DNA from: an uncultured Candidatus Saccharibacteria bacterium
GTDB taxonomy: Bacteria > Patescibacteriota > Saccharimonadia > UBA4664 > CAYXHD01
DNA length: 64,000 nucleotides
NCBI GenBank assembly: GCA_964585425.1
Contig: CAZPDI010000001.1
Location: 4,804-68,803, forward strand
Direction: 5' to 3'
In this document: positions 3,035 to 60,321 of the stretch, one piece after another
How positions within the stretch are numbered: the stretch's first letter is position 1
Layout of the letters: the number at the start of each line of letters is the position of its first letter
Notes under the pieces: generated by a model
What the model was told of the DNA's origin: nothing
Database searches by the model: none
The model's input: the letters and a program-made list of their open reading frames with translations, nothing else
Translations under genes and position numbers: made by a program

Positions 3035-3123
3035 ATGCTTATTGTAGCAATTTGGCGACTGTTATGCGACAGTTCAGGGGAACATTTATACGAAAAATCC
3101 TTTGGGATGATCCTTGTTCAAAA

Positions 3124-3193
3124 AAACACTTTTTTGCTTATTGCAACTTTGTGGCATTAAGGGGGTCTTATCGCAACTAATTCGCAATAAGCA
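3124..3193. promoter_or_regulatory. Dual-box operator-like module upstream of the FAD-oxidase gene, homologous to the znuA/zur intergenic module
   Basis: Box 1 is TTATTGCAActTTGTGGCATTA (3137-3158) and box 2 is TTATCGCAActAATTCGCAATAA (3167-3189). An 11-bp perfect inverted repeat TTGCTTATTGC (3133-3143) / GCAATAAGCAA (3183-3193) is also present. About 80% identical by eye to 60241-60304. Confidence 0.5.
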
Positions 3194-3279
3194 AACAAGC
3201 CGTTTTTTAGATAGAACCCCGCCCCAGCCCCTGGCTTAAAGGCAAAAGATATGCTAGAATCTGCTAGTTACCCAACCAC

Positions 3280-5117: not shown

Positions 5118-5136
5118 AACATATCCTATCCGTTAC

Positions 5137-5358
5137 TTACTTCTTAGCCAGTAGACCGAGAATCAGCGACAGCACAAACACGACACCGCTAATGATAGTG
5201 AGGTTAAATACTACCTTTTCGGCTCCTCGTTTGTTTCTAAAATTTCCTGAGCTGCCACCAAAGGCATCACCCAAGCCGCTGCTTTGTTGCTGGAGTAAAA
5301 TCATAATCGTCATGATTATGGCCGATATTACGGTAATAGTGTAAAAGAATGTTTTCAT
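5137..5358 (-). CDS. secG: Preprotein translocase subunit SecG
   Basis: 73 aa with two TM segments and the central motif LLQQQSSGLGDAFGGSS typical of SecG. Confidence 0.7.
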   Translation of the reverse strand: MKTFFYTITVISAIIMTIMILLQQQSSGLGDAFGGSSGNFRNKRGAEKVVFNLTIISGVVFVLSLILGLLAKK

Positions 5359-5720
5359 GCTGTTGCCTTCTCCGATCTGTCATCTAATAAATAATTGACG
5401 CCCCAAATAATAATAACTGCCATTATGGCTGAGCGTACCGAGGTAATGGTGAACTTGGGATATAAAAAGGTTACCAGGTAGAGCATCAAGGCGTTAATCA
5501 CCAGCATAAACAGGCCGAGCGTCACGGCGATGAGCGGCAAGGTAAGCACGACGATCAAGGGGCGCAACAAGGCATTCACGATACTGAAGATGAGTGCCGC
5601 CCAGATGAGCACGCGTAATCGACCAGTATAATCAATACCGCTTAGCAGTGTAGCAGCAGCCCACAACCCTAAAAAGTTGACGATCCAGCGGAGTATAAAG
5701 CTTTTTGCGATGTAACTCAT
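5355..5720 (-). CDS. DUF360 / holin-family-4-like small membrane protein
   Basis: 121 aa with four hydrophobic segments. IVNALLRPLIVVLTLPLIAVTLGLFMLVINAL matches the DUF360 pattern. The 4-nt overlap with secG suggests an operon. Confidence 0.55.
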   Translation of the reverse strand: MSYIAKSFILRWIVNFLGLWAAATLLSGIDYTGRLRVLIWAALIFSIVNALLRPLIVVLTLPLIAVTLGLFMLVINALMLYLVTFLYPKFTITSVRSAIMAVIIIWGVNYLLDDRSEKATA

Positions 5721-5728
5721 TTTGCATT

Positions 5729-7228
5729 CTATTTTAGCATATTGGCGTCTAAATAGCCACGGAGAGCCTTGGCTTTGGCGGGGCCAATAACCTCTGCCAA
5801 TTGCTCACGAGTGGCCTCTTGAACACCTCGACCAGACCCAAAAGCCTTGACCAATTTTTTGCGCGTGGCCGGCCCAATGCCCGGCGCATCATCAAGAATT
5901 GATTTGGTCGCCCGCTTGCCACGCAACAGACTATGATACGTCACCGCAAAACGATGAGCTTCATCGCGTACGCGCTGTAGTAATTGTAAAACGTGCGAGC
6001 TTTCGGGTAGCAAAATGACTTCGAAATCAACATTAGCGTACACCCAGGCCTCATCTTCGTAATGTCCACGCCTATCAATAGCTACATCAGCTGTTCGGCG
6101 ACGAATAATTTCTTCTTCACGCTTAGCCAATCCAATGGCCGGGATGGTGATGCCGAGCTCGTCGAGTACGCCCAAGGCGGCACCAAGTTGCCCCTTACCG
6201 CCATCGATAAGTAGTAAATCGGGCTTCGGCCACGCAGTCAGGTTCTTGGCGCTAAAGCGTCGTCGCATAACTTCGCGCATGTGCCCAAAATCATCATTAC
6301 CCTTAAGTTGCATTTTAAAGCGCCGATACTCATCTTTATGCGGCACGCCATCGGTAAACACCACCATACTAGCAACATTGTCGCTACCCTGCATATGCGA
6401 GATATCATAGGCCTCGATACGCCGCGGTGCGCCCTTGAGTTGCAACCTGTCGGCTAACCCCACGAGAGCTTGATCGTTACGCAGATCAAACGCTTCATTT
6501 TCGCCAAAGATCATCTGCTTTTTAAAGCTCAGGAGCAACTGGAGCTTGTCGCGCAGCTGACCGGCCGCTTCGAACTCCTTCTTTTTTGCGGCTCGATCCA
6601 TATCCTTTTTTACCTGATCAATCAGCTTGGTGTGTTCGCCACGAAGATATAACTTGAGCTGACGGACCGTGCGCGCATATTCCGCTGGTGTAATGGCGTT
6701 TTCTTCGGGCCCCGGGCATAAGCCAAGGTGGAACTGCAAACAACCGCGAGCCGGCATGGTGCTATGAGTAACATACGGAAAGGCTTTACGTAGTATTTTA
6801 AGTGCTTGCCGTACACTGTAGCCATCACTAAACGGTCCATAATAGCTAGCACCGTCATCCAGCGGACGACGAACGTAGCTCAATACTGGATATACATCCT
6901 TACTAAGCCGCACATATTGCCAATGTTTGTCATCGCGCAAATCGATATTAAACTTCGGCATGTAGCGTTTTATAAACTCACTCTCTAAAAAGAGTGCTTC
7001 GACTTCACTATCAACCGTTATCCAGTCTGTCATCGCAATGTTCTGCAGCAGAACCAACGTCTTAGGATCACGATCTTTGCGAGTCTGGAAGTATGAGCTG
7101 ACACGGTTCTTAAGATTGGCGGCCTTACCAATATAAATAATCTTGCCCTTGGCGTCTTTGTGGAAGTAGACACCTGGTTGTTGCGGCAAGGTTTTAAGCT
7201 TATCTTTAAGTTTTTGACTAATTTCCAT
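5729..7228 (-). CDS. uvrC: Excinuclease ABC subunit C (short form)
   Basis: 499 aa with a GIY-YIG N-terminus (GVYFHKDAKGKIIYIGKAANLKNRV), a UVR motif (EFEAAGQLRDKLQLL), an endonuclease domain and a C-terminal HhH. Confidence 0.9.
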   Translation of the reverse strand: MEISQKLKDKLKTLPQQPGVYFHKDAKGKIIYIGKAANLKNRVSSYFQTRKDRDPKTLVLLQNIAMTDWITVDSEVEALFLESEFIKRYMPKFNIDLRDDKHWQYVRLSKDVYPVLSYVRRPLDDGASYYGPFSDGYSVRQALKILRKAFPYVTHSTMPARGCLQFHLGLCPGPEENAITPAEYARTVRQLKLYLRGEHTKLIDQVKKDMDRAAKKKEFEAAGQLRDKLQLLLSFKKQMIFGENEAFDLRNDQALVGLADRLQLKGAPRRIEAYDISHMQGSDNVASMVVFTDGVPHKDEYRRFKMQLKGNDDFGHMREVMRRRFSAKNLTAWPKPDLLLIDGGKGQLGAALGVLDELGITIPAIGLAKREEEIIRRRTADVAIDRRGHYEDEAWVYANVDFEVILLPESSHVLQLLQRVRDEAHRFAVTYHSLLRGKRATKSILDDAPGIGPATRKKLVKAFGSGRGVQEATREQLAEVIGPAKAKALRGYLDANMLK

Positions 7229-9977: not shown

Positions 9978-10318
9978 GACAAAGCCAACCTACTACCCCG
10001 AAAGAGGTCCCGTGACCAAAATCACGAACCGCAGCATCGCTCCTGCTGGCAGCATCTCCCAGATCGCTCAGCTCCACCAGGACGGAGAGATCGACCGCGA
10101 CCAGACCACTCAGGTGATCGAAGTGGTTGCGGAACATGCCGCAGAGGCGCCAAACACCTGTCCGCGCTGTCAGCGCGCCAACTGCCCAGTGACGAGGGGC
10201 GGCAACTGCCAGTTGCCAGACATGAAGGTGGTGGATCACCTGGTTCGTCAGCTGCAGACCTCCAACTGATCTCGAGTCGGTCCTATGGGATCGAGGGGCG
10301 ACGAGGCTTGGCTTTGTC
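9978..10318 (+). repeat. 11-bp perfect inverted repeat bracketing cassette 1a (leader versus 3' hairpin loop)
   Basis: GACAAAGCCAA at 9978-9988 and TTGGCTTTGTC at 10308-10318. The 3' copy lies in the loop and 3' arm of the hairpin GGGGCGAC(10295-10302)/GTCACCCC(10316-10323). Confidence 0.7.
10012..10269 (+). CDS. GC-rich ORFan, 85 aa, with a C-terminal Cys cluster (CPRCQRANCPVTRGGNC)
   Basis: GTG start 5 nt after the SD AAGAGG. GC3-rich codons. No recognisable family. Confidence 0.55.
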   Translation: MTKITNRSIAPAGSISQIAQLHQDGEIDRDQTTQVIEVVAEHAAEAPNTCPRCQRANCPVTRGGNCQLPDMKVVDHLVRQLQTSN

Positions 10319-10364: not shown

Positions 10365-10403
10365 TATTGTCATGCTTGCATACGAAGTATGCGCGCACCT
10401 TAC

Positions 10404-11207
10404 GACAAAGCCAACAACTACACCGAAAGGGGTCCCGATGGGATCTTCTGGAATTCTGGGGTTTCCCAAGGCTGCACACCGCGCCCCCACCATCAGCGAG
10501 GGGTACCAGGAGTACGTCGAGGAGATGACCGGCCTGGCCGTGTGCATGATCTGCGATAGCGGAACATGCCCCGGCGCCAGTGGACGCGCTTGCCCCTATG
10601 AACTCGACGTCTGCACCGTCTGCTGGCAGCTCGACTGCATTAGCGTCTTCGGTCACGACTGCCCTTCGGAGGAACGCTGCAACAACTGCGGTCACCTCCG
10701 GAACGAATTCGGCCATTACAGCAACTGCTCAATGCCCACAATGAAGCTGTGCGACGAGTGCGGGAGCGCAACCTGTCGCGTCAACCCGCCAAAGGAAATG
10801 CGAGAGGAGTACCCGTCGGACTACAATCCGTACTGGGATGACCACCACAGCATCTTCGATACGCTGGGCTGCCTCTTGGGTAGCCCGATCAGCGAGGAAG
10901 AACGGATCGCGGAAGAGATCGCATCGTGTTGGGCTCCGCGCACCGACCAGATGTCCCGAGATCGAGTACGGCAACAGATGCTGAGAACATGGATTGATCG
11001 TGATCTGGACAAAGCAGCTGAGGAAGCTCAGCAGCGCGCCGACCAGATGTCCCAGTCCATGCATCAGCTCACCGAGCTTGCGGACGACTACGACGACGGA
11101 CTGATCTCCGAGAACGTGGTTCTGATGCTCCTCCGGGCTGATCATCGCGGTGTACGGCTCTCCGGGTGACCTTTGAGGGTCGGTGAGCGTCAAGGCTTGG
11201 CTTTGTC
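10404..11207 (+). repeat. Second copy of the same 11-bp inverted repeat pair, bracketing cassette 1b
   Basis: GACAAAGCCAA at 10404-10414 and TTGGCTTTGTC at 11197-11207. The 3' copy lies in the hairpin GGTGAGCGTC(11182-11191)/GTCACTCACC(11205-11214), whose 13-nt loop aAGGCTTGGCTTT is conserved. Confidence 0.7.
10438..11169 (+). CDS. GC-rich ORFan, 243 aa, Cys-rich N-terminal half (14 Cys, four CxxC pairs) and acidic helical C-terminal half
   Basis: The start was moved to ATG 10438, behind the SD GAAAGGGG; the track start 10372 lies in the promoter. CxxC pairs are CMIC, CTVC, CNNC and CDEC. No family recognised. Confidence 0.55.
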   Translation: MGSSGILGFPKAAHRAPTISEGYQEYVEEMTGLAVCMICDSGTCPGASGRACPYELDVCTVCWQLDCISVFGHDCPSEERCNNCGHLRNEFGHYSNCSMPTMKLCDECGSATCRVNPPKEMREEYPSDYNPYWDDHHSIFDTLGCLLGSPISEEERIAEEIASCWAPRTDQMSRDRVRQQMLRTWIDRDLDKAAEEAQQRADQMSQSMHQLTELADDYDDGLISENVVLMLLRADHRGVRLSG

Positions 11208-11365: not shown

Positions 11366-12103
11366 ATGTCTCAGCTCGTCATCGTCCAGGGCCCCAAGCC
11401 CCGCACGTCCGCGGTGTCCGACAAGGATGCCCACAACCTCCGCCTCCAGGCGGACAAGGTGCTGGCCAGGCACCGCGGTGATCTCCCCCAGGAGATCGTC
11501 ACGCAGCTGACCAGCCCGATGCCCGGCATCGTGGGCATGGGACTGCACGACGCGGCCTCCTGGATCAAGCAGCGCACCGCCAACCTCAAGCTGCAGTACG
11601 TGCAGCAGCACCCCGACTGCGAGGCGGCCATGGCCCTCAAGACCCGAGTCGACAACGTCCTCAACGGCGAGTTCGGCGACAAGGTCAAAAAGAGCCTCGA
11701 CATGCGTGGTCAGCGCATCCTCGAGCTGGACCTGTACCAGATCTTGAGCACCGACCAGCTGAAGAGCTTCGCCCACTTCGTCAAGAAGGCCGAGGCAGTC
11801 GAGGGTCGCTTGCAGACCGAGAAGGCACGCAAGGCGGTGCCGGCCCAATCGCTCCAGATGCTGTTCCCGTCCAAGGAGAAGCGCGAGCGCAAGCCGAAGA
11901 AGGTCAAGCCGGCCTACGCCGGTCTCCCCGCACCGTCCACCGGGATCGTCACCGACTGGAAGAGCGACGTCGGCAGCGTCGGTGCCCCGAACCCCCAGGG
12001 TCCGGCGCCGGCACGCGGCGTCACCCTCCGCAAGTCCGACAAGGCTCGCGCCAAGGGAGTGAAGGGTGGTGGCGTCAAGACCCGTCCGGGGCGACGCAAC
12101 TGA
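11366..12103 (+). CDS. GC-rich ORFan, 245 aa, with a Lys/Arg/Pro/Gly-rich basic C-terminal tail
   Basis: The start was moved to ATG 11366, behind the SD AAGGAAAG; the track start is 11306. The tail reads KEKRERKPKKVKP..KARAKGVKGGGVKTRPGRRN. No family recognised. Confidence 0.55.
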   Translation: MSQLVIVQGPKPRTSAVSDKDAHNLRLQADKVLARHRGDLPQEIVTQLTSPMPGIVGMGLHDAASWIKQRTANLKLQYVQQHPDCEAAMALKTRVDNVLNGEFGDKVKKSLDMRGQRILELDLYQILSTDQLKSFAHFVKKAEAVEGRLQTEKARKAVPAQSLQMLFPSKEKRERKPKKVKPAYAGLPAPSTGIVTDWKSDVGSVGAPNPQGPAPARGVTLRKSDKARAKGVKGGGVKTRPGRRN

Positions 12104-30181: not shown

Positions 30182-30556
30182 ATGATCACATGTGAAGTGC
30201 AGGACCAGGCTGGCGGGAAGTCCACGAGCGTCATCACCCTCGGTGATGCCCTGGCTGCCGTTGCCTACCTGATCGGCATCAGCGGGAACTCCCAGCTTGA
30301 GTACCACGAGCTGATCGAGGGCCAGTCGTTGACCATCATCTCGGAAGGACATGCCCTCGTTGGGCAGATCGAGATGCCGGACTTCGAGGAGGAGGAGCCC
30401 TACTTCGGCCTGATGTACACCTTCTCCAGCAACGGCGATCGCGACTTCGAGCTGTTCAGCCTGCTGGTTCTGCCGGCAATGTTGCTGAACCTGCAGCAAT
30501 GCGAACCGCAGGTGATCATCGAGCTCGAGCGGATGCGCCAACCGGTGACCGCCTGA
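30182..30556 (+). CDS. GC-rich ORFan, 124 aa, acidic
   Basis: The start was moved to ATG 30182, behind the SD AAAGGAG and a CA-rich leader; the track start 30074 lies in the AT-rich promoter. No family recognised. Confidence 0.55.
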   Translation: MITCEVQDQAGGKSTSVITLGDALAAVAYLIGISGNSQLEYHELIEGQSLTIISEGHALVGQIEMPDFEEEEPYFGLMYTFSSNGDRDFELFSLLVLPAMLLNLQQCEPQVIIELERMRQPVTA

Positions 30557-39942: not shown

Positions 39943-39977
39943 GCAAAGATTGTATCACATACAGCCCCTCATTGCTA

Positions 39978-40006
39978 TTGCATTATGTCGCAAAATATGA
40001 TTAAAT
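39978..40006 (+). promoter_or_regulatory. Candidate promoter of GC-rich unit 3a
   Basis: TTGCAT (39978-39983), a 17-nt spacer, then TTAAAT (40001-40006) with TG two nt upstream. The aaatNtgaTTAAAT block is shared with the unit 3b promoter. Confidence 0.5.
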
Positions 40007-40040
40007 AGTATGGTTCTGCTACCTATCCCTAAGGATTCCA

Positions 40041-40415
40041 ATGAATGCACCTGCCCGTCCCATGCCCGACATCACCGATGTGGAGCTGACCAAGAAGATC
40101 ATCGATGAACGTGTGAAGCACCACAACCTGCGCCATGAAGATGGTGAAGCGATCTGGATGGTAGTCACGGCCATCGGTCATGCCATCAAGATCGGTGATC
40201 CTCAGTACAGCCCGATGATCGACCGCAACGTCACGGGGCTGCGCAACGAGGCGAGGCCAGGCGAAGTTCCGGTCATCTTGCTGTCCGACCTGAACCGCAT
40301 CTTCTGTGACGACACGTTGATACGCGAGCTGCAGCGGGTGTTCCCGAGCATCGTCAATGATGCGGCGCGCGTTGCCTGCTGGAAGTTCCGCAACTGCATG
40401 TACGGATGCGACTGA
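40041..40415 (+). CDS. GC-rich ORFan, 124 aa (variable partner of module copy 1)
   Basis: ATG follows the SD TAAGGA. GC3-rich codons. It ends in the junction GAC TGA TC ATG. Confidence 0.55.
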   Translation: MNAPARPMPDITDVELTKKIIDERVKHHNLRHEDGEAIWMVVTAIGHAIKIGDPQYSPMIDRNVTGLRNEARPGEVPVILLSDLNRIFCDDTLIRELQRVFPSIVNDAARVACWKFRNCMYGCD

Positions 40416-40417
40416 TC

Positions 40418-40627
40418 ATGCGCCTTCGGATCCCCTGGCGCAAGCAAACCGTGCCGCCGCCACCCGCGACTGTCGCGATGAAGGCTGCGCCCCTGGTGCC
40501 GCCACCTCATCGCCGGATGACGGCCGAAGAACGCGCTGCGTGCTGCCAAGATCAGAGGAAGATCAAGCTGCGTGCTGCCAAGCGTTGTCGGCGCAAGGCC
40601 CGAAAGCGCCGACTGCGCAACAAGTAA
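40418..40627 (+). CDS. Pro-rich / strongly basic mini-protein, 69 aa (conserved partner, copy 1)
   Basis: The start was set at ATG 40418, matching the paralog junction TGATCATG; the track start is 40406. It shares the core VAMKxAPLxPPPxRRMTAEERAA and a K/R tail with ORF 42234..42467. Confidence 0.55.
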   Translation: MRLRIPWRKQTVPPPPATVAMKAAPLVPPPHRRMTAEERAACCQDQRKIKLRAAKRCRRKARKRRLRNK

Positions 40628-40647
40628 CCCCCGTGAGGCGGATCGCC

Positions 40648-40680
40648 GAAAGGTCCCTCTTGCGGGGGATCTTTCGTTAT
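40648..40680 (+). terminator. Terminator hairpin, divergent copy of the conserved island-3 terminator
   Basis: GAAAGGTCCC-tcttgcg-GGGATCTTTC followed by GTTAT. Confidence 0.55.
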
Positions 40681-40687
40681 GGTGATA

Positions 40688-40716
40688 TTGATTTATACCT
40701 GTAAATGTGATTAAAT
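40688..40716 (+). promoter_or_regulatory. Candidate promoter of GC-rich unit 3b
   Basis: TTGATT (40688-40693), a 17-nt spacer, then TTAAAT (40711-40716) with upstream TG. Confidence 0.5.
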
Positions 40717-40750
40717 TTCCCTATTCCGTTTCGAGTCCAAAGGAGAGACC

Positions 40751-40984
40751 ATGACGGACGCACATGCCACGGCCGTCTCCACGGTCTATTTTTGGCTCGA
40801 GTACGAGTTGGGTATCGATAATCCTGATCACGTTGAACTGACCATGATTATCGAGAATGGCTGGCTGCGCTATCGGTGCCCGGCCCACGACATCACCCCG
40901 CTTGAAATCGCCCGCCTCGAAGCTGCCTGCCGGCACCACGCCCATTCTCTTGAAGTGCACCTGAACCTGGAGGTTCAATCATGA
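40751..40984 (+). CDS. GC-rich ORFan, 77 aa
   Basis: ATG follows the SD AAAGGAGAG. ATGA overlap at 40981-40984 couples it to the next ORF. Confidence 0.5.
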   Translation: MTDAHATAVSTVYFWLEYELGIDNPDHVELTMIIENGWLRYRCPAHDITPLEIARLEAACRHHAHSLEVHLNLEVQS

Positions 40985-41733
40985 TTGTCCACAAGCACGA
41001 CATCGATACCGCAGCTCGTCTGGCCGCCAAAGAGCGGTTCATGAACGAGTCATGGCTGGATGATCGCAAGGTGCGATCATGGTTCGCTTGGCTCGGTATC
41101 CGTCCTGACGGTCATCAAGCATTGCGCATCTTGCGCGCTGTGCATGCCACGGCTGCCACCGTGCGTGAGTACAAGATCCACCATCGCCACACGCGCTTCG
41201 GTCGAACGATGCGCCTGCAGCGCCGGCTCCCACCGTGGCCCGCCAAGTACGCGGATACCCCGGTCATCAATGCCGCGCAGATGCTGCTGGTGACTCAGCG
41301 CACGGACTACATCCACCTCACGGAGCTGACGCGACCAATTACGGGTACCAGTTATCGGCACGGCGACAATCGACGCGTCGATATGGAAACGTGCAAGATG
41401 TTCCTGGAGAACGTGCAGAGCAAGTTCATGCGCGAAGCCGTTTGGTCAGATGAGTTGGTATGTATCGAGAGCTTTGCGCGGCTCGGCCTGACGCCCGATG
41501 AGCTGCTGGTGGCCGAGATGGCTCTGATCCGTCTGATGAGTAGGTATCGGCACGAAAAGGGGCTTACCTGGTATCTGATGCCGACCTATGGCAGCCGGAG
41601 CCGCCGCTTGCACACCCTCACCATGGGTGATTTCTTGAACATCACCCGATTTCTCCAACCCAACTATGGCGACACCGACATGGAGTTTCTCATGACGCTG
41701 GCCGATCGTCTGCGTTCGCGACTTGCGACCTGA
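40981..41733 (+). CDS. GC-rich ORFan, 250 aa, Arg/His-rich
   Basis: Translationally coupled to the 77-aa ORF. No motif recognised. Confidence 0.55.
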   Translation: MIVHKHDIDTAARLAAKERFMNESWLDDRKVRSWFAWLGIRPDGHQALRILRAVHATAATVREYKIHHRHTRFGRTMRLQRRLPPWPAKYADTPVINAAQMLLVTQRTDYIHLTELTRPITGTSYRHGDNRRVDMETCKMFLENVQSKFMREAVWSDELVCIESFARLGLTPDELLVAEMALIRLMSRYRHEKGLTWYLMPTYGSRSRRLHTLTMGDFLNITRFLQPNYGDTDMEFLMTLADRLRSRLAT

Positions 41734-41753
41734 TCTCGACACATACCCTCGCG

Positions 41754-41796
41754 GGGGCTTTTCTACGGAAAGGTCCCTGCGGGGGATCTTTCGTTT
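41754..41796 (+). terminator. Conserved 43-nt terminator element, copy A
   Basis: The element reads GGGGCTTTTCTACGGAAAGGTCCCTGCGGGGGATCTTTCGTTT. It contains the mini-hairpin CTTTTC-tacg-GAAAGG plus a 10-bp stem GAAAGGTCCC/GGGATCTTTC and a T-rich tail. Confidence 0.65.
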
Positions 41797-41801
41797 ATAG
41801 C

Positions 41802-41830
41802 TTGCAATATCAATACTTTAAATGTATAAT
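41802..41830 (+). promoter_or_regulatory. Candidate promoter of GC-rich unit 3c
   Basis: TTGCAA (41802-41807), a 17-nt spacer, then TATAAT (41825-41830) preceded by TG. Confidence 0.65.
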
Positions 41831-41859
41831 TTGTAAATCCGTACGACCAAGGAGTACCC

Positions 41860-42231
41860 TTGACCGAAGCCAATACCCTACCCAAGGCCGATGCCAGCGT
41901 CAAGCTGTCCGACGACATCATCGCAAGCTGCTACGAGGGCTGCGATCCCCGTGAGTCCGATCGAGCTCGCGGCTGCATCGCCGCCCTCAAGGACCTGCTA
42001 CGGCTCGCCGAGAAGACGCCGAACGACGCGCGCTACCAGGAGATCCGGGAGTTCGACGCCGACACCCTGACCGTTGGCCAGTTCATCACCCTGATGTACC
42101 TGCCGGCGATGTCGCCGAATCAGCCCCGCCAGCTGATGCGCAACGTGCGTAGCAACTGGGGGCGACTCAACCAGCGAGTTCTCATCGAGCTGCGAGACAA
42201 GCTGGATGAGCGCTACGAGCCCCAGGACTGA
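41860..42231 (+). CDS. GC-rich ORFan, 123 aa (variable partner of module copy 2)
   Basis: TTG start 5 nt after the SD AAGGAG. It ends in the same GAC TGA TC ATG junction as 40041..40415, but the two proteins show no visible similarity. Confidence 0.5.
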   Translation: MTEANTLPKADASVKLSDDIIASCYEGCDPRESDRARGCIAALKDLLRLAEKTPNDARYQEIREFDADTLTVGQFITLMYLPAMSPNQPRQLMRNVRSNWGRLNQRVLIELRDKLDERYEPQD

Positions 42232-42233
42232 TC

Positions 42234-42467
42234 ATGGGCATCTGGAACTCTCGGCGCAAGAAGACGACACCACCGCCACCTCCTCCTGCACCTCCTCCGC
42301 CGCCCGCGGCTGTCGCGATGAAGACTGCACCACTGGCGCCGCCACCGCGTCGCCGAATGACGGCCGAAGAACGCGCCGCTCTCAAGCTGCCCAAAGTGAA
42401 GGCCCGGCAGCGCCTGGCCAAGAACCGACGCGCCAAGGTCAGGAAGCGCAAGCACAAGAAGTCCTGA
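42234..42467 (+). CDS. Pro-rich / strongly basic mini-protein, 77 aa (conserved partner, copy 2)
   Basis: Paralog of 40418..40627. It contains PPPPPPAPPPPPAAVAMKTAPLAPPPRRRMTAEERAA and the tail KARQRLAKNRRAKVRKRKHKKS. Confidence 0.6.
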   Translation: MGIWNSRRKKTTPPPPPPAPPPPPAAVAMKTAPLAPPPRRRMTAEERAALKLPKVKARQRLAKNRRAKVRKRKHKKS

Positions 42468-42479
42468 TCGCGCCCCTGT

Positions 42480-42523
42480 GGGGACTTTTCTACGGAAAGG
42501 TCCCTGCGGGGGATCTTTCGTTT
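42480..42523 (+). terminator. Conserved 44-nt terminator element, copy B
   Basis: The element reads GGGGACTTTTCTACGGAAAGGTCCCTGCGGGGGATCTTTCGTTT. It is identical to copy A except for one inserted base. Confidence 0.65.
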
Positions 42524-43119: not shown

Positions 43120-43545
43120 CTAGAGCCCCTCTATAAATGTCTCGATAAAGCTATTCAGCTTGCTGCCAACTCGAGTAATGATCGAGTCTCGCTCCAAAAT
43201 CTTGGGCTTAGCTATTAATGTAGCGGCAATCTCATTGCGGCGTGGCTTGCGGCCAGTGAATAAGTAATCGTTAATCAGTTTTTGCAATTCATCGGTCATT
43301 AGACCTTCTTCAACACACATGGCCTCAAAAGCTTTAGCGCGCTCGACATTCCAGAACGAATCAAACTCACCAGCTACATCTTCAGGATTCTCGATCTTGG
43401 GTAGCGATCGGGCAATAAATTTCTCAATCAGCTCGCGCTTGCTACGCAGCACGGCATTGCCCATAAGCGTGTTATTAAGATTATCGATTATCTGAGCTTT
43501 TTTTGATCTTCCGACATAACCCCTCGCTTTGTGTCTATTGTACAC
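43120..43545 (-). pseudogene. hsdR: Fragment resembling the C-terminal domain of a type I restriction enzyme R subunit (EcoR124-type HsdR)
   Basis: 141 aa. LRSKRELIEKFIARSLPKI..FDSFWNVERAKAFEAMCVEEGL..LINDYLFTGRKP..KLNSFIETFIEGL matches my memory of the HsdR C-terminal domain. The helicase and nuclease body is absent. Confidence 0.55.
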
Positions 43546-44457: not shown

Positions 44458-44868
44458 ATGCCAAGCGCACAGACCATCCTCCCTCTGACCGCCGAACAGG
44501 TGGCCATGCCCGTGACCGCTGCCATCCTCACCACGGAGGACATCATCGGCGACCACGGGAGGTACCCGAAGGACATCGCTCACAGCTTGTCCACCATCTG
44601 CGAGTTCCTGCAGGAGGTCAAGCGGGAGGTCAAGCAGAGTCCAAGGGCCTACCTCGGCTGGTTGGAGTTGGCGGATGAGAACGGGGTGCGCTTCAGCGAG
44701 CGCGATTACCCCAGCATCACCGCAGGGTTCCTCCTGGCCGTGATGGAATCCAGCGCCGCCTGGGGCACCGTGATGAAGCACGGTCCGGAGGACTACTGCT
44801 TCGAGCAGCTGAACATGCTGAGGACGGCGGTCTACGCCCTCCTCTTCAAGCGGTCGCTGGCTGGCTGA
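44458..44868 (+). CDS. GC-rich ORFan, 136 aa
   Basis: The start was moved to ATG 44458, behind the SD AAAAGGAAA; the track start 44413 lies in the promoter. No motif recognised. Confidence 0.55.
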   Translation: MPSAQTILPLTAEQVAMPVTAAILTTEDIIGDHGRYPKDIAHSLSTICEFLQEVKREVKQSPRAYLGWLELADENGVRFSERDYPSITAGFLLAVMESSAAWGTVMKHGPEDYCFEQLNMLRTAVYALLFKRSLAG

Positions 44869-46883: not shown

Positions 46884-47258
46884 GTGCACCTCACTAATCC
46901 AAGTCGCCGCCGAACTGATTCTGACGTGGTCATGCTGGTTCGTACGCCAGGTGGCCACCTGGCTGTGCTGGTCTTTACTGCTACAGCCCGTGGACAACGC
47001 CTTCGTCTGGATAGTCAAACATGGAATGGTGTGACGTTTGACGATATGGATGACGCCATCAAAGCGCTCCAGGAAACGGCCGACGCTCACTTGATTACCG
47101 AGAACAACCGTGTGACGGACACGTTGCTTCATGCCAATCCATTGGATTCGCACTTCTTCTTGATGGAGCCCTGGGATCACAAACGCTTCATCGAAGCGAT
47201 CAAACGGGATGGTCTGTTCGATTGTCAGCGTCCGGTGTTCACACCCGTCACCCGCTGA
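46884..47258 (+). CDS. ORFan, 124 aa, moderately GC-enriched
   Basis: GTG start follows the SD AAAGGGGAAG. No motif recognised. Confidence 0.45.
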   Translation: MHLTNPSRRRTDSDVVMLVRTPGGHLAVLVFTATARGQRLRLDSQTWNGVTFDDMDDAIKALQETADAHLITENNRVTDTLLHANPLDSHFFLMEPWDHKRFIEAIKRDGLFDCQRPVFTPVTR

Positions 47259-49188: not shown

Positions 49189-50709
49189 TTAGCTAAACAA
49201 ACTCGGTTGCGTGCCGGCAGTTCCCCTGGTTATTTCATCGAGCACTTCGTAAATGCGCACCATGGCCAAGGTATCGAGCGCACAATAGACCAGCAAATCA
49301 TCGAAAACCTTTTGCGCCTCATCGGCCGGCATGTCGCCAAACACCGCACGCATGTATGAACCTTGGGCATCACCACCATTTTGAATACCAAGTTCTTTAT
49401 AGCTTAAATCAGGTGCCAACACTGGTAGGACATTTTTAATACTGGCACTGCCCATAAAACGGGAGTCAACATAGAGCTGTTGCTGGAAGGGATCGATGAG
49501 ATCAACCACACGAGCATTTAGATCAAGCAAGAAGTCGGCGTGCTCCGGGAACATCTCGGCCATTTCGCTGTGGCGCCCGCATTCGAACGCTTTATACCAT
49601 ACGGCGATACTACCAGTAGGGCCAATATCGCGCTTGAGCTGCTCAATGAGTGGCGGCATGGGATTACTCTGCTCCGTCCATAAAAATTCGGTGTGACGCA
49701 ACTCTTGGCCCGGCGCATCAAGAATATGCAAACTGTACTGCATAGGAATTTGCTGATACGGCTTGGTGCCGTCGTATAGTGGCACCGCATCGGCCGCCGT
49801 TTCGTAATCTAAAAAGTAAATTGGGAATTGGATGGTTTGCATAAATTTAGCGATGGCTGGGGCGTCGATGCGCACCTCTCCACTCTTGGTGGTAGCGATT
49901 TGCATTTGCTGAGCCGGCGCCAGCGTACTAATAATCTCCGCGGGTACGTCTTGGATTTTAGTAACTCCGGCGGCCTCCAGCTGCTCAATAAGTTTTGGAT
50001 TCAACCGAGCGAGATTAAGGATGCTGTCAGTCGGCACTTCGCCTTTGAGTTTCTTGTAAATAGGCATCCAATCAAAATAGCCACCATAACTTGCCAGTCG
50101 CGGTGACAAGCTTGGACAATCCGGACTTAGAATCACGTCAAAGGCTTCTTGGACTTTAGCGTCCATGGCCAACATTGTATTATGTACGTCATCAGTCACA
50201 TCGGTGATGCTAGTGAGAGCCATAACATCGATATCACCATTCCGCACATACTGACCATTAACATGGACCACGGCAGTTTTGCGCACCCGATAGCCGCAAG
50301 CCTCTATGGTACGCTTTTGGAATGCCAGATCCCAGGTGTGATCCGGCTTGGCTTTGGTACTAACTTTAATTTCATAAATATCAAACTCATCACCGCCGAC
50401 GCGAACCATGACATCGGTTAAGCAAGCCGTGTTATCAGGCGCCGTGAATTTGGCCTGAAATAATGTTTGAGCGCCAGTCGCCAATAAACGCGCCGTGACT
50501 CGATCCTTTTCGAAGTAATCACCAGTGATGCGTTGACCATCACTAAACAGTTGCTCGGCAAGAGCTTCGAAGCGAAAGCCCATATCAAAAAGAGCTTGGG
50601 TATTAGCATCAATCGGCGGCAGCTTATTGGGCTCAAACTTTTTAAGCCACAACCAAGCCGGGTGTTTTAAAAATACCATAAAGTCAGATTTAGAAAGTTG
50701 ACGTGCCAT
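49189..50709 (-). CDS. DUF2779-like protein (putative PD-(D/E)xK nuclease N-terminus plus exonuclease-like C-terminus)
   Basis: 506 aa. The N-terminus LSKSDFMVFLKHPAWLWLKK resembles the DUF2779 family start. The assignment is from memory only. Confidence 0.45.
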   Translation of the reverse strand: MARQLSKSDFMVFLKHPAWLWLKKFEPNKLPPIDANTQALFDMGFRFEALAEQLFSDGQRITGDYFEKDRVTARLLATGAQTLFQAKFTAPDNTACLTDVMVRVGGDEFDIYEIKVSTKAKPDHTWDLAFQKRTIEACGYRVRKTAVVHVNGQYVRNGDIDVMALTSITDVTDDVHNTMLAMDAKVQEAFDVILSPDCPSLSPRLASYGGYFDWMPIYKKLKGEVPTDSILNLARLNPKLIEQLEAAGVTKIQDVPAEIISTLAPAQQMQIATTKSGEVRIDAPAIAKFMQTIQFPIYFLDYETAADAVPLYDGTKPYQQIPMQYSLHILDAPGQELRHTEFLWTEQSNPMPPLIEQLKRDIGPTGSIAVWYKAFECGRHSEMAEMFPEHADFLLDLNARVVDLIDPFQQQLYVDSRFMGSASIKNVLPVLAPDLSYKELGIQNGGDAQGSYMRAVFGDMPADEAQKVFDDLLVYCALDTLAMVRIYEVLDEITRGTAGTQPSLFS

Positions 50710-54688: not shown

Positions 54689-55771
54689 CTACCCTGTCCA
54701 GCGCTGACGCTGCAGATCCTCTACCTGCCAACGCAACGTTTGTCCCGCCCGGAATGGCACCACCCCGCCGATCTCTTCAGGCACAGCCCAGGGGATCCTC
54801 GACAACAACACATAATTGTCGTCTTGTGGGGGCTCGACGCCGTAGAACTTGCAACCAGCAATGGAGACAAACTGCTCCAGCCTCTCCGGCCAGTCCTCCA
54901 GACCACTGTCCTCGAACAGTTCCGCCAGCACCGGCAGAGCAACTGGTCCGGAATACACGCCGTTGTTAGGCTTTGCCTTCAGCTTGTCCTCGATTCGATG
55001 AGGCGCCGAGTCGCTACCGAAGAAGATCTTGGGCGGATCACCCGGCTTGACACTGAGCATCGCAGCCAAGATGGCTTGACGATCTTCCTCGGTCTTGGCT
55101 CGCGGCAAACAGGCATGATGCGGCTGATCGATGACACCATCGTGCTCAACGTCATTAATGGTCAAGCATGGATGATGAGCCGTGATGGTGGCAGCGACGT
55201 TGGCCGGCAGCTCCATGATGAGGTTGATGGCATCGGCAGAAGAGACGTGCTCGAAGACGATTCGCAGACCCGGGAATGCCTCATGCACCTCCATGAACAG
55301 CTCGAGGAACATCTGCTCAGCATGAGCGAGATCGTCGGTTGAGACTTCGCCGTGCACGTTAAGCACGACATCAAGCTCCTGCATCACTTCAAATACTGGC
55401 CACCCGTCGTGGATATCCCGCAAACCAAAACCCGAATGAGTCGTGGTGTTGTACGGATAATACTTGACCGAACAGAATCCGTTGCGACGTTCGTACATCA
55501 GACGGATGATCGCTTCATCAGTGTCTGGCGTGAGGTACAAGGTCGGCCACAAGTTCACCATGTTCAGGCCTTTCAGCCCTGCCTGCACCTCTTGCAGATA
55601 GTGGAACGCATGCATAGCGTCACTTACTGGCACCGGGTTGAGGTTTGGCATGAGCAAGGCGTAATGGAGATGACCAATGCTGGGACGAACAACATCTTTC
55701 AGCAGACGTCCTTGACGAACATGAACGTGCCAATCGCTCGGACGACGCATCTTGAGTGCCAAGTAGGGCAT
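54689..55771 (-). CDS. pyrC: Dihydroorotase, short homodimeric (E. coli-like class II) type, GC-rich
   Basis: 360 aa. Motifs line up with E. coli PyrC as I remember it: KMRRPSDWHVHVRQG, MPNL, VKYYPYNTTT (carboxylated Lys position), HGEV, VFEHVSS, ATITAHH, FFGSDSAPH, FYG, VPFRAGQTLRW. Confidence 0.85.
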   Translation of the reverse strand: MPYLALKMRRPSDWHVHVRQGRLLKDVVRPSIGHLHYALLMPNLNPVPVSDAMHAFHYLQEVQAGLKGLNMVNLWPTLYLTPDTDEAIIRLMYERRNGFCSVKYYPYNTTTHSGFGLRDIHDGWPVFEVMQELDVVLNVHGEVSTDDLAHAEQMFLELFMEVHEAFPGLRIVFEHVSSADAINLIMELPANVAATITAHHPCLTINDVEHDGVIDQPHHACLPRAKTEEDRQAILAAMLSVKPGDPPKIFFGSDSAPHRIEDKLKAKPNNGVYSGPVALPVLAELFEDSGLEDWPERLEQFVSIAGCKFYGVEPPQDDNYVLLSRIPWAVPEEIGGVVPFRAGQTLRWQVEDLQRQRWTG

Positions 55772-55839
55772 GGTGAGTCCTTTCGGGACGTTGTGAGTGA
55801 ACGAACAAAGGTGTGCCTAAGCACACCTCCATAACCATT

Positions 55840-55867
55840 ACTATACACTATTATTCATAAATTGCGA
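55840..55867 (-). promoter_or_regulatory. Candidate pyrC promoter, near-duplicate of the 54612-54639 promoter
   Basis: On the minus strand: TCGCAA-tttatgaataatagtg-TATAGT. The shared string is GCTCGCAATTTATGAAnAATAGnTGTATA. A leader hairpin AGGTGTGC-ttag-GCACACCT follows. Confidence 0.45.
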
Positions 55868-55871
55868 GCGT

Positions 55872-55901
55872 CTGGGCCAGGGGAACTCTCCCCCGGCCCA
55901 G
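55872..55901 (-). terminator. GC hairpin after the pyrE-like gene
   Basis: CTGGGCCAGGGGA-actc-TCCCCCGGCCCAG forms a 13-bp stem with one mismatch. No U tract. Confidence 0.45.
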
Positions 55902-55923
55902 CGCGAACCGTTGAATACGGGGC

Positions 55924-56583
55924 TCAGGCTGCGAGTAACTGGACCCAGCCACCCTCGTACTGCGGGTTGACCTCATCGCGGTAGTGGGCACCGTGACCCA
56001 GCGCACCATCGACAACAATGGGCTTGCCAGCTTCACAGAGCGGACAAGCTTCGGCGTCGTAGGACGCGAAGTCCACGTGCGTCAGCTGCTCCAACCGGGG
56101 AACTCCGATGGCGTCAGCCTCCACACCGCCTCGGTTGCAGACGGCACTGATGCCGATCACCTCACCACCACAGGCTTCGATGGCCGCGCAGGTGCCCTGA
56201 ACCGAACTGCCAGTGGTCAGCAGATCCTCGATCACGAGAACGCGTTTGTTCTGCAGGTGCTGCGGGAAGCTCAGGCGATCGACCACGAAGTTGTTGCCCT
56301 CCTTGTCGGCCCACAGGCCAGGCACACGAAGACCCTTCTTGTGCAGTAGCCAGTTCGAGGCAGTGCTGGTGAGCGCCACGCCACCGGTTGCCGGTGATGC
56401 GACAACATCGAAACCGCCGTCGAATGGTCTGAGGAGATCCGAGACGATCTGGCTGAGCATCACTGGATCAGCGAAGATCGGGTCCATGCAGATGTAGCCC
56501 TCACCGTGTCCACCCTTCTTGTACACGAAGTGGTTGTCGAGAAAGACGGCTCCGACCTTCTGGAGGTACTCGAGAATGTCCAT
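55924..56583 (-). CDS. pyrE: Type I phosphoribosyltransferase, probable orotate phosphoribosyltransferase, GC-rich
   Basis: The start was moved to Met14 (56583), behind the SD AGGAA. The PRPP-binding motif is RVLVIEDLLTTGSS. The position between pyrC and pyrF supports the call. A C-terminal CPLCEAGKP motif is present. Confidence 0.6.
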   Translation of the reverse strand: MDILEYLQKVGAVFLDNHFVYKKGGHGEGYICMDPIFADPVMLSQIVSDLLRPFDGGFDVVASPATGGVALTSTASNWLLHKKGLRVPGLWADKEGNNFVVDRLSFPQHLQNKRVLVIEDLLTTGSSVQGTCAAIEACGGEVIGISAVCNRGGVEADAIGVPRLEQLTHVDFASYDAEACPLCEAGKPIVVDGALGHGAHYRDEVNPQYEGGWVQLLAA

Positions 56584-56631
56584 GTGCGTTCCTAACGTGA
56601 GACGAATGCGCCAACTGGTCACATCCGAATT

Positions 56632-56660
56632 ATTATCCTATTCATAAAAGTTATTTACAA
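56632..56660 (-). promoter_or_regulatory. Candidate promoter of the pyrE-like gene
   Basis: On the minus strand: TTGTAA-ataacttttatgaatag-GATAAT, with a 17-nt spacer. It shares TTTATGAATAG with the two promoters downstream. Confidence 0.45.
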
Positions 56661-56675
56661 GCATAAGTGTGTCGC

Positions 56676-56736
56676 CGGACGGGTGGGCAAAAAGTTTACA
56701 GTCCGAAGACCTTCTTCCTCCTCGCCCACCCGTCCG
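56676..56736 (-). terminator. Long hairpin after pyrF
   Basis: A perfect 13-bp stem joins CGGACGGGTGGGC (56676-56688) and GCCCACCCGTCCG (56724-56736), with a 35-nt loop that contains an inner mini-hairpin. Confidence 0.45.
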
Positions 56737-56742
56737 AGCATG

Positions 56743-57675
56743 TCAGGCCGCCAGGCGAACTCGCTCGATGGTCTCGTGCATGTTGGAGGCCTCAGCTTCC
56801 GACGCCTCAGCCGGAGCCAGACCCTCGTACTGCTGGTTGTCGTGAGCATGGGTGATGCCGCTCGAGGAGTTGATGGCGATGCCAGCCTGCTGGCTGTTGT
56901 GTCCGTTCTGGTAGGCGGCTGCAGCGTCACCGCCCTGCTTGTTTCCTACCCCAGGGATCAGGATCGGAACCTGCTCGCCAACACAACGACGAACGTTGGC
57001 AAGGTCGTCGATGGACTCGGGACTTGCGCCGGCCACCACACCGACGTTGCCTCGCTTGTTCCAGCCCTCCAGGCTGGCGACGTTCTGTGCGACTCGCTCG
57101 TACAGGAAGCCCTCCATAGTCACGCCCATGAGGGTTGACGAGCAGGTATCAAGCTTCTGGAACTCCTCGGCGCCAGGGTTGGATGTACGAGTCAGTACGA
57201 AGACCCCCTTGTCGCCACGGTCCAGCCACGGGGCCATGGCCTGTGCACCCATGTAGTTGTGGACGGTGACTGCATCAGCTCCGCAGACGTCGTAGGCGAA
57301 CGAGGCGTAGGTGTCATTGGTCGCTCCGATGTCGCCGGCCTTGAGGTCAAGGATCTTGACGACATCTGGCGCGTGGGTACGCATGTGCTTGAAGAGCAAC
57401 TCCAATGCCTGGATGCCTTCATGGCCATGCTTGAGGTAGAACCCCAAGTTGGGTTTCATCCAGCCGACTTTGCCGGCCAGGGCCTCGACGATCGGGAACA
57501 AGAAGGTGGTGAGCGTACCGCAGATGCTGGCCCGCTGGAAGCCCTCCGGGATGCGTGTGATCACCGGATCATCCTCGCGATAGGTGCTCTTGAGCGTTGG
57601 GTCGAGACCGGCGCAGACTGCACGGTGCTGCCCGGCGTTCAAGGCCACGAGCTCCGAAAAGCTGAGGTCGGACAT
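56743..57675 (-). CDS. pyrF: Orotidine 5'-phosphate decarboxylase, subfamily 2 (long form), GC-rich
   Basis: The start was moved to Met7 (57675), behind the SD GGAGAGGAG. Motifs are MKPNLGFY, the LDLKAGDIGATN signature (DxKxxDIxxT) and PGVGNKQGGD. Confidence 0.8.
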   Translation of the reverse strand: MSDLSFSELVALNAGQHRAVCAGLDPTLKSTYREDDPVITRIPEGFQRASICGTLTTFLFPIVEALAGKVGWMKPNLGFYLKHGHEGIQALELLFKHMRTHAPDVVKILDLKAGDIGATNDTYASFAYDVCGADAVTVHNYMGAQAMAPWLDRGDKGVFVLTRTSNPGAEEFQKLDTCSSTLMGVTMEGFLYERVAQNVASLEGWNKRGNVGVVAGASPESIDDLANVRRCVGEQVPILIPGVGNKQGGDAAAAYQNGHNSQQAGIAINSSSGITHAHDNQQYEGLAPAEASEAEASNMHETIERVRLAA

Positions 57676-57778
57676 GTCAGACTCCTCTCCCATCTGACGA
57701 TGAGATAGATTCGTGCGACCGAATTAGCCACATCCATATTAGTATGGTTTCTGGGACGCTTAAGAGCAAGCGTAAGAG

Positions 57779-60226: not shown

Positions 60227-60240
60227 GTCTTTAAAATAAA

Positions 60241-60304
60241 ACACCTTTTTGCTTATTGCAAATTTGTCGCATTAGTGATATCTTATTGCAACAAAGTCGC
60301 ATTA
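60241..60304. promoter_or_regulatory. Dual-box operator-like module in the divergent znuA / zur promoter region (candidate Zur boxes)
   Basis: Box 1 is TTATTGCAAatTTGTCGCATTA (60253-60274) and box 2 is TTATTGCAAcaAAGTCGCATTA (60283-60304). Each is an imperfect palindrome, TATTGCAA..TCGCATTA. The boxes overlap TTGCAA -35-like hexamers on both strands. Confidence 0.55.
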
Positions 60305-60321
60305 ACGAAAGATTAATAAAA

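Follow-up and report, generated by a model that had tools for sequence, protein, structure and literature searches.

How do two related tiny genes come to follow, through the same few nucleotides, two genes that are not related to each other? The question is raised by a 64,000-nucleotide (nt) stretch of a Candidatus Saccharibacteria genome (soil), to which we refer as the window. At 39.97-42.52 kb, the window holds an array of three GC-rich units, 3a, 3b, and 3c. In 3a and 3c, an open reading frame (ORF) for 124 or 123 amino acids (aa), termed o124 and o123, is followed two nt after its stop codon by a short ORF (mini-ORF) for a strongly basic protein, mini3a or mini3c. We consider it probable, though by no means certain, that the units are exchangeable cassettes resembling phage morons and that the basic mini-gene is an optional addition at their 3' end.

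Each unit consists of an AT-rich, sigma70-like promoter, a Shine-Dalgarno (SD) site, one or two ORFs, and an intrinsic terminator with a long hairpin. Since 3a, 3b, and 3c each have their own promoter and terminator, they appear to be three independent transcription units and not one operon. The ORFs and coordinates of all three units are as given in an initial annotation of this DNA, which had also described the two stop/start junctions as identical; indeed, GACTGATCATG reads GAC TGA TC ATG in both cases, after unrelated ORFs of 124 and 123 aa. The features around the junctions, as read from the sequence, are:

40410-40420, + strand: junction GAC TGA TC ATG (stop codon of o124, two nt, start codon of mini3a), a putative termination-reinitiation site
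42226-42236, + strand: junction GAC TGA TC ATG (stop codon of o123, start codon of mini3c), also the exact point at which identity to the related contig L084 collapses
40418-40627, + strand: mini3a, 69 aa, isoelectric point (pI) 12, 33% K+R, 13% P, not called as a gene in public collections
42234-42467, + strand: mini3c, 77 aa, pI 12, 31% K+R, 21% P, likewise not called as a gene in public collections
40454-40539, + strand: shared 86-nt block encoding ...PPPA(T/A)VAMK(A/T)APL(V/A)PPP(H/R)RRMTAEERAA, 87% identical to 42294-42379

Exact matches to the junction 11-mer occur at just two sites in the window, and four matches are found against 1.04 expected if one mismatch is allowed. The mini3a frame has an additional in-frame ATG upstream, at 40406. 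With 29 of 47 identities (62%, E = 2e-13), the two mini-proteins are paralogs, as had been proposed; identity between mini3a and mini3c is 55%. The high nucleotide identity reported for the two mini-ORFs was recovered as well, in the form of the 86-nt block (87%). The stop context C-TGA-TC is shared by many cassette ORFs of the window (40413-40417, 41731-41735, 42229-42233, 42465-42469, and 10267-10271) and by two ORFs of L084 (1671-1675 and 2427-2431), including the o124 homolog of this contig, which has no mini-ORF. It looks as if the mini-ORF had been inserted directly 3' of TGATC.

The mini-protein family has four known members, two in the window and one each in the related contigs L003 and L084. 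They are 69-84 aa long, with pI values of 11.8-12.0, 31-38% K+R, and 12-21% Pro. All four share M1, an early Trp with basic residues after it, two adjacent prolines (PP), the motif R-M-T-x-x-E-R-A, and scattered basic positions; the alignment thus gives a layout of N-terminal Trp and basic cluster, Pro tract, PP-(R)-R-M-T-x-x-E-R-A, and K/R tail. A conserved core that goes beyond Pro/Arg low complexity had been suspected, and the motif bears this out: six positions of the 8-residue window RMTxxERA are invariant, and since none of 300 composition-preserving shuffles exceeded four, the core is not just low complexity. The invariant Arg before the Met is encoded by CGG, CGA, CGC, and AGG in the four members and the second Arg by CGC, CGC, CGT, and CGA, and such codon variation at invariant positions fits selection on the protein. 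All four mini-ORFs start at a stop-NN-ATG and stay open until a few nt before the terminator, despite ~45% nt identity and several indels. As judged from these features of the sequences, the mini-ORFs form a genuinely coding family that is confined to a narrow Saccharibacteria lineage.

Several other readings of the conserved block and the junction were rejected. The two copies of the block gave no significant RNA structure (fold z = -1.5 and +0.6) and no Rfam match, and a structured-RNA reading was dropped on these fold scores. A diversity-generating retroelement, whose repeat copies would differ at template adenines only, is excluded by the mixed substitutions between the two copies of the block (11 in all; G/T, A/G, C/A, T/C...); no reverse transcriptase was found among the ORFs scanned. 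For a fusion by programmed frameshift or UGA read-through, the sequence gives no support: there is no slippery site by eye, and the zero frame past the UGA misses the mini-ORF frame. Long host ORFs that are intact under code 11 also argue for UGA as a stop codon.

Relatives of the array genes sit on five short contigs, and L001 and L002 are identical to the window. L085 is otherwise 96% identical, but another sequence takes the place of the first ~40 o124 residues (L085 234-611 vs. window 40041-40415), a case of localized mosaicism inside the upstream gene. L003 carries, in this order, a diverged o124-like C-terminus (z = 5.7), the junction GTC TGA CC ATG, the third mini-protein, cassette 3b with 86-95% aa identity to the window, and a different cassette encoding 166 aa. 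In L084, a 132-aa unit is followed by an o77-like gene with a 132-aa gene (o77 being the first gene of 3b), by an o123-like gene with its mini-ORF, and by an o124-like gene. The o123-like gene (78%) is joined through GCC TGA TC ATG to the fourth mini-protein, of 84 aa; the o124-like gene (39%) ends with AAC TGA TC and runs straight into a terminator, without a mini-ORF. In L086, a different cassette without a mini-ORF precedes 3b. The closest species representative, L004, encodes beside bipA a 424-aa ORF of 63-65% GC (4679-5953, - strand) with two or three tandem o123-like helical domains (phmmer E = 2e-5, database of 11,540 ORFs); the o123 family thus exists in single-domain and repeat forms.

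The initial annotation had seen in units 3a and 3c a conserved mini-protein with a hypervariable upstream partner. This holds only inside this genome, and across genomes the relation is reversed. DNA identity between the window and L084 is ~85% across the terminator, the promoter, and the whole o123 ORF through CTGATCATG, then 40-45% over the mini-ORF; at the protein level, o123 is 76% identical (alignment; 78% by BLASTP) and the mini-protein 37%. Nor did the neighborhoods of the homologs show an always variable upstream partner, as o123 is kept in L084 and the o124 homolog occurs there without a mini-ORF. The homology breakpoint at the junction, the o124 homolog that lacks a mini-ORF, and the low identity of positional orthologs together mark the mini-ORF as an optional 3' module that is either separately exchangeable or very fast-evolving, with the stop/start junction as its 5' boundary. 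Among the members, dN/dS is 0.35-0.62. The two window copies resemble each other far more than positional orthologs do, so that the likeness within this genome does not point to strong conservation; it seems best accounted for by a recent duplication, or by gene conversion, of an exchangeable 3' module.

Exchange is suggested for whole cassettes, too. Cassette 3b, the only one open to direct comparison, is closer between the window and L003 (dS 0.08 for o77 and 0.27 for o250, the second gene of 3b; omega ~0.29) than the neighboring core gene bipA (dS 0.95, omega 0.03, 97% aa identity), and DNA identity is 91.5% in the cassette 3b block vs. 81-83% in the flanking backbone. The block of high identity starts abruptly in the last ~35 nt of mini3a, spans terminator, promoter, and cassette 3b, and stops at the -35 element of the next promoter; the two mapped breakpoints fall in shared terminator/promoter sequence or inside the 3' end of a mini-ORF. 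For o123, dS between the window and L084 is 0.39 (omega 0.33). The window contains no metK, so that a direct core-gene comparison is not available for this pair; between L003 and L084, metK is saturated. Cassette order and content differ among L003, L084, and L086. These patterns suggest horizontal exchange by homologous recombination among co-occurring Saccharibacteria, with co-occurrence inferred from the fact that L084 and L001 come from adjacent Sequence Read Archive runs.

The upstream genes and the two genes of unit 3b are:

40041-40415, + strand: o124, 124-aa acidic ORFan (pI 6.1), first gene of 3a, predicted all-alpha (AF2 pLDDT 64)
41860-42231, + strand: o123, 123-aa acidic ORFan (pI 5.1) with TTG start, first gene of 3c, predicted all-alpha (AF2 pLDDT 68), GC content at third codon positions (GC3) 0.84
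40751-40984, + strand: o77, 77-aa acidic ORFan, first gene of 3b, dN/dS 0.29 vs. L003, 54% homolog in L084
40981-41733, + strand: o250, 250-aa basic ORFan (pI 10), ATGA-coupled to o77, dN/dS 0.285 vs. L003

The GC3 of o124 is 0.77. Homologs of o124 were found in L084 (39% aa identity), in L085, and as a C-terminal fragment in L003, those of o123 in L084 (P0010, 78% by BLASTP) and, as the distant tandem-repeat form, in L004. The N-terminal half of o250 is homologous to the 132-aa gene in L084. The ATGA overlap of the 77-aa and 250-aa ORFs that had been reported for 3b is present (40751-40984/40981-41733), and the claim that the two upstream proteins are mutually dissimilar also stands: o124 and o123 give no BLASTP match, a shuffled Smith-Waterman z of 0.3, and a profile-profile probability of 0.1%. 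Their helix layouts are alike in structure predictions; a hidden homology was undetected by BLASTP, by shuffle-calibrated alignment, and by profile-profile comparison. A common C-terminal motif, L(T/S)(V/M)GxF..., suspected by eye in many cassette ORFs, was unsupported by family hidden Markov models (HMMs).

Transcription and translation signals of the array were located by sequence inspection, consensus scan, and terminator scan, as indicated:

39972-40006, + strand: promoter of cassette 3a, TTGCTA-18-TATGAT or TTGCAT-17-TTAAAT, from a consensus scan
40031-40035, + strand: SD site AAGGA of cassette 3a
40688-40745, + strand: promoter of cassette 3b, TTGATT-17-TTAAAT, with SD site AAGGAG at 40740-40745
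41802-41854, + strand: promoter of cassette 3c, TTGCAA-17-TATAAT, 10 of 12 consensus matches, with SD site AAGGAG at 41849-41854
40642-40681, + strand: terminator T1, hairpin GAAAGGTCCC..GGGGGATCTTTC followed by a GTT tail, fold z = -3.4
41746-41795, + strand: terminator T2, 18-bp hairpin with UACG loop and ATCTTTCGTTT tail, fold z = -6.9, from a terminator scan
42473-42522, + strand: terminator T3, 18-bp hairpin with UACG loop, fold z = -5.9, from a terminator scan

The ATGATTAAATAGTAT(A/G)GTTC promoter of cassette 3a is also found 5' of the o124 homolog in L084. The promoter region of cassette 3b is ~97% identical in L003 (by reading the alignment), and L086 has the same promoter and SD site. 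The T1 motif recurs at 41768 and 42495; T2, which follows o250, and T3, which follows mini3c, are 91% identical. Each hairpin runs into a conserved (A)TCTTTCGTT(T) tail, and fold z-scores across T1-T3 range from -3.4 to -6.9.

The array forms a 2.6-kb island of ~58% GC in a genome of ~47-48% GC. GC3 is 0.67-0.84 in the long ORFs of the island and 0.71 in both mini-ORFs, compared with 0.36-0.56 in five measured host genes, so that the composition of the array is foreign relative to host genes. It lies between an NYN-domain gene and bipA, in an interval that also holds an ORFan of 143 aa, a C-terminal type I restriction enzyme fragment, another NYN gene, and a further cassette. Its neighbors include NYN-domain genes, genes for ABC transporters and for an ECF sigma factor, an HsdR fragment, and bipA. 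The restriction enzyme fragment, a 141-aa ORF at 43120-43545 (- strand), resembles type I restriction enzymes solely at their C-terminal end (PADLOC REase_I, E = 1.7e-5) and is probably the remnant of a lost restriction-modification system in this hotspot. In the corresponding interval, L003 encodes Vsr, Dcm, and a putative endonuclease, L084 two N6/N4 methyltransferases, and L004 other GC-rich ORFans. Because related contigs carry different restriction-modification genes there, we regard the interval near bipA as a strain-variable accessory or defense-type hotspot. Our Pfam scan of the window covered 28 ORFs, fewer than half of the ~72 ORF candidates, and revealed no integrase, transposase, phage gene, or type IV secretion system (T4SS) gene among them.

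That neither partner can be assigned to any family, as the initial annotation had stated, was borne out by searches with the six ORFs of 3a-3c, which have no match in Pfam, PHROGs, PADLOC, or NCBIfam. The neighbors of the six ORFs were likewise scanned, and no significant family match was reported for cassette ORFs in these four collections. A word-index search of 5.8 billion clusters gave no relatives of mini3c; it returned for o250 only itself and one 86% relative, and for the o123 profile itself and one 78% relative. An exhaustive HMMER search of 1.84 billion representatives with a profile of the two window mini-proteins yielded just two low-complexity Pro-rich matches in long proteins, which are artefacts. 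Since the mini-ORFs are uncalled, protein databases are partly blind to them, but DNA-level scans, which are independent of gene calling, were negative as well: mini-protein DNA patterns were not found in 185,579 species genomes, IMG/VR, or JGI metagenomes. Nothing was found by terminator-motif scans of metagenome and viral collections, by blastn and tblastn against phage and plasmid records, or by viral scans with o250 and with o123 and o124 profiles, and a PDB sequence search gave no match. A BipA scan gave 80 loci, the best one 93% identical, which served as a survey set; the other 79 Saccharibacteria bipA loci contain none of the array genes and no terminator motif. GC-rich islands at such loci were considered as cassettes and rejected, since they turned out, at least in L020, to be ordinary Ala/Gln-rich genes. 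In the literature, we found no title or abstract describing such cassettes or the mini-protein.

The window contains further cassette-like units. Stand-alone ORFan cassettes lie on the + strand at 30182-30556 (with ppa on one side and a HAD hydrolase gene on the other), 44458-44868 (directly adjoining the stop codon of bipA), and 46884-47258, each with putative promoter-like sequence upstream and a hairpin terminator. The cassette at 46884-47258 is only modestly GC-rich; its L003 homolog (66% aa identity) adds an ATGA-coupled 115-aa second gene that is absent in the window, so that an optional downstream partner is seen here for a second time. At 10.0-12.1 kb, three ORFs are of similar design and have their own shared untranslated region (UTR) elements. 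Two of them belong to GC-rich + strand cassettes at 9978-10318 and 10404-11207 (ORFs 10012-10269 and, Cys-rich, 10372-11169), each flanked by an 11-12 nt inverted repeat with GACAAAGCCAAC in the 5' UTR and CTTGGCTTTGTC in the terminator loop. Both 5' UTRs share CCGAAAG(A/G)GGTCCC just before the start codon, and the inverted repeats could reflect 5'-3' pairing of the mRNA or mark a mobile cassette as its terminal inverted repeats. This terminator occurs a third time, in a weaker form, at 50328-50367. The third ORF, 11366-12103 (+ strand), is an ORFan with GC3 0.87 and a Pro/Lys/Arg-rich C-terminal part of ~90 aa (pI of the whole protein 10.3); it has no HMM similarity to the mini-protein and may be a fused analogue of this otherwise separate protein. 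The seven cassette-like units noted are all on the + strand, in contrast to the housekeeping genes between 1.4 and 60 kb, nearly all of which are on the - strand. Two observations lie outside the cassettes. Three ORFs at 54689-57693 (- strand), pyrC/pyrE/pyrF-like by eye from their translations, have GC3 values of 0.66-0.78, which are well above those of the five host genes, and may for this reason be horizontally acquired. A 76-nt AT-rich direct repeat with TTGCTTATTGCAAC...CGCAA motifs occurs at 3120-3195 and 60235-60310 (80% identity, 57 kb apart).

Among known systems, the array can be compared with phage morons and integrons. Like morons, its units are autonomous, with their own promoter, SD site, ORF(s), and intrinsic terminator; base composition is sharply unlike that of the flanks, and content varies among close relatives and is apparently horizontally exchanged. 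Unlike morons, the units have no prophage context and no homologs in phage records or viral contigs, which led us to reject a prophage; the array units are arranged in tandem and others stand singly between housekeeping genes of a Saccharibacteria chromosome, and all seven cassette-like units are on the strand opposite to nearly all housekeeping genes. With integron arrays, the locus shares co-oriented, small, mostly ORFan genes in strain-dependent order and content, and array units that end in a conserved hairpin; TA-like (toxin-antitoxin-like) two-gene cassettes are common in integrons. However, neither an IntI integrase nor attI was found in the vicinity of the array within the scope of the Pfam scan. 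The hairpins have a perfect stem of 16-18 bp, a UACG loop, and a T-rich tail and are read as intrinsic terminators, and the boundaries ...GGGGGATCTTTCGTT(A/T)(T/A)... do not fit GTTRRRY (RYYYAAC/GTTRRRY, by eye). In addition, every array cassette has its own -35/-10 and SD sequences, whereas integron cassettes are generally promoterless and expressed from Pc. An integron was rejected on these grounds, i.e., no integrase near the array, no attC core sites, and one promoter per cassette.

For 3a and 3c, we can propose how the two products might work together. Since the mini-ORF starts two nt past the upstream stop codon and its SD-like motifs are weak or variable (AGGA in 3c; in 3a no more than GGA, at a distance of 11 nt from the start codon), we infer translation by termination-reinitiation coupled to the upstream gene. 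Such coupling would tie synthesis of the mini-protein to translation of the acidic upstream protein. The charges are paired, with pI 12 for the mini-proteins and 5.1-6.1 for their upstream partners. The polycationic, probably disordered mini-protein may bind a polyanion, either nucleic acid or the ribosome, and may act with, or be buffered by, the acidic partner, which would make the pair a conflict-type accessory module. This functional part is a tentative guess that we ourselves find doubtful.

Other explanations of the pair start from the same features. The initial annotation had likened it to a toxin-antitoxin (TA) module, and a type II-like arrangement, with an acidic upstream antitoxin, a basic mini-protein toxin, and one toxin type combined with unrelated antitoxins, would account for two small, co-oriented, translationally coupled genes that lie 2 nt apart under their own promoter and encode an acidic (pI 5.1-6.1) and then a basic (pI 12) product. 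It would also fit the variable defense-type hotspot with its restriction-modification genes or remnants and cassette 3b, which is likewise acidic-then-basic and ATGA-coupled. The resemblance therefore stands for operon geometry and charge order and fails for family membership and obligate pairing: no toxin, antitoxin, or defense family match was found in Pfam, NCBIfam, PADLOC, or PHROGs, mini-proteins, o124, and o123 belong to no known family, and the putative toxin is Pro-rich and probably unstructured. Moreover, the putative toxin diverges faster than the putative antitoxin (37% vs. 76% aa identity) and is optional, as no mini-ORF follows the o124 homolog in L084, and the two "antitoxins" have no detectable shared feature for binding a common toxin. 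A TA pair is therefore unlikely; an effector/adaptor pair, which the initial annotation had raised too, is pure speculation. Alternatively, the cassette proteins could be exported to the host bacterium, with the mini-protein serving as a charged C-terminal-type signal, escort, or adaptor for a T4SS. Substrates of VirB/D4 systems are known to use positively charged C-termini as transport signals, and the C-terminal tails of the mini-proteins are very basic (K/R-rich, pI 12). The genes are lineage-specific, fast-evolving, and horizontally traded, like many effector repertoires, and T4SSs are widespread in Patescibacteria, with substrates unknown (PMC12102498). However, no T4SS or coupling-protein gene is present among the 28 ORFs scanned, most cassettes of the same design have neither a mini-ORF nor a basic tail, and the proteins carry no signal or motif of a known substrate class. 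We regard this explanation as improbable. Even less credence can be given to its widest form, in which the cassettes would be horizontally traded host-directed factors of an epibiotic Saccharibacterium and the mini-protein a detachable export or cell-entry module (charge-based T4SS signal or escort, or cell-penetrating carrier) that plugs in behind different cargo genes at UGA-UC-AUG.

Two further explanations, both very improbable in our view, concern the mini-ORF by itself. The mini-protein resembles arginine-rich-motif peptides of the lambda N and HIV Rev/Tat type and small polycationic nucleic-acid binders in being small, of very high pI, and probably disordered, with an Arg-rich, helix-prone segment (RRRMTAEERA...), and its gene lies directly 5' of the highly conserved 16-18 bp hairpins between cassettes. 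It might thus be a lambda-N-like RNA-binding regulator of termination or read-through at these hairpins. Yet homology to such peptides is not detectable, the analysis revealed no dedicated RNA target, and Rfam gave no match; cassettes without a mini-ORF carry the same hairpin type (T2 after o250, 91% identical to T3), the hairpins 3' of the four mini-ORFs differ among themselves, and the basic tract is C-terminal, in contrast to the N-terminal tract of N proteins. The mini-ORFs could also be nonfunctional, i.e., chance open frames in GC-rich, stop-poor 3' untranslated sequence, with the shared block as a duplicated non-coding segment. This would agree with the fact that mini3a and mini3c are uncalled and that the L003 member is called only as an upstream-extended version of the frame, with the antisense frame and another sense frame that are also open in this region of the window, with GC1/2/3 values of 0.65/0.63/0.71 that do not discriminate between frames, and with the fairly high dN/dS among members. 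It is countered by the shared stop-NN-ATG start and the frames kept open to the terminator in all four members, by the invariant RMTxxERA, which has mostly synonymous codon variation and a degree of conservation that none of the 300 shuffles reached, by the 86-nt block, where 7 of the 11 differences fall on third codon positions of the mini-ORF frame and are synonymous, and by the lack of an RNA structure signal in the block.

We therefore prefer exchangeable, moron-like cassettes with an optional basic 3' mini-gene, against which several points have to be held. Just four mini-ORFs are known, and the contigs that carry them are short and come from three or four genomes. Both mini3a and mini3c were missed by gene callers, so that protein databases may miss relatives, and the DNA-level scans were negative too. 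Translation of the mini-ORFs and its coupling to the upstream genes are deduced from sequence only. Cassette mobility could not be traced to a recombinase, a transposase, or a specific site of recombination, none of which was found, and codon-usage constraint in GC3-rich genes could partly explain the lower dS of the cassettes.

Saccharibacteria and other Patescibacteria live attached to host bacteria, and most of their strain-specific genes are uncharacterized. At the locus described here, accessory genes of a reduced genome are organized in clear-cut modules, each a complete promoter-gene-terminator unit, and unrelated cassettes are joined to a small polycationic gene through one fixed stop/start junction. 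Standard gene callers overlook the mini-ORFs, which are therefore an example of small proteins that are invisible to protein databases. Based on the comparisons presented here, the mini-proteins appear to be a lineage-restricted family of tiny polycationic proteins that act as a portable 3' add-on to moron-like, horizontally exchanged cassettes. There is a small chance that the family marks host-directed effectors; if the host-directed explanation were true, it would represent a new way of building secreted-effector pairs and provide the first candidate substrates of the Patescibacteria T4SS. If the cassettes are conflict or host-interaction genes, they would offer concrete candidates for study in the few cultivable Saccharibacteria; otherwise, they would represent a lineage-specific family of ORFans.

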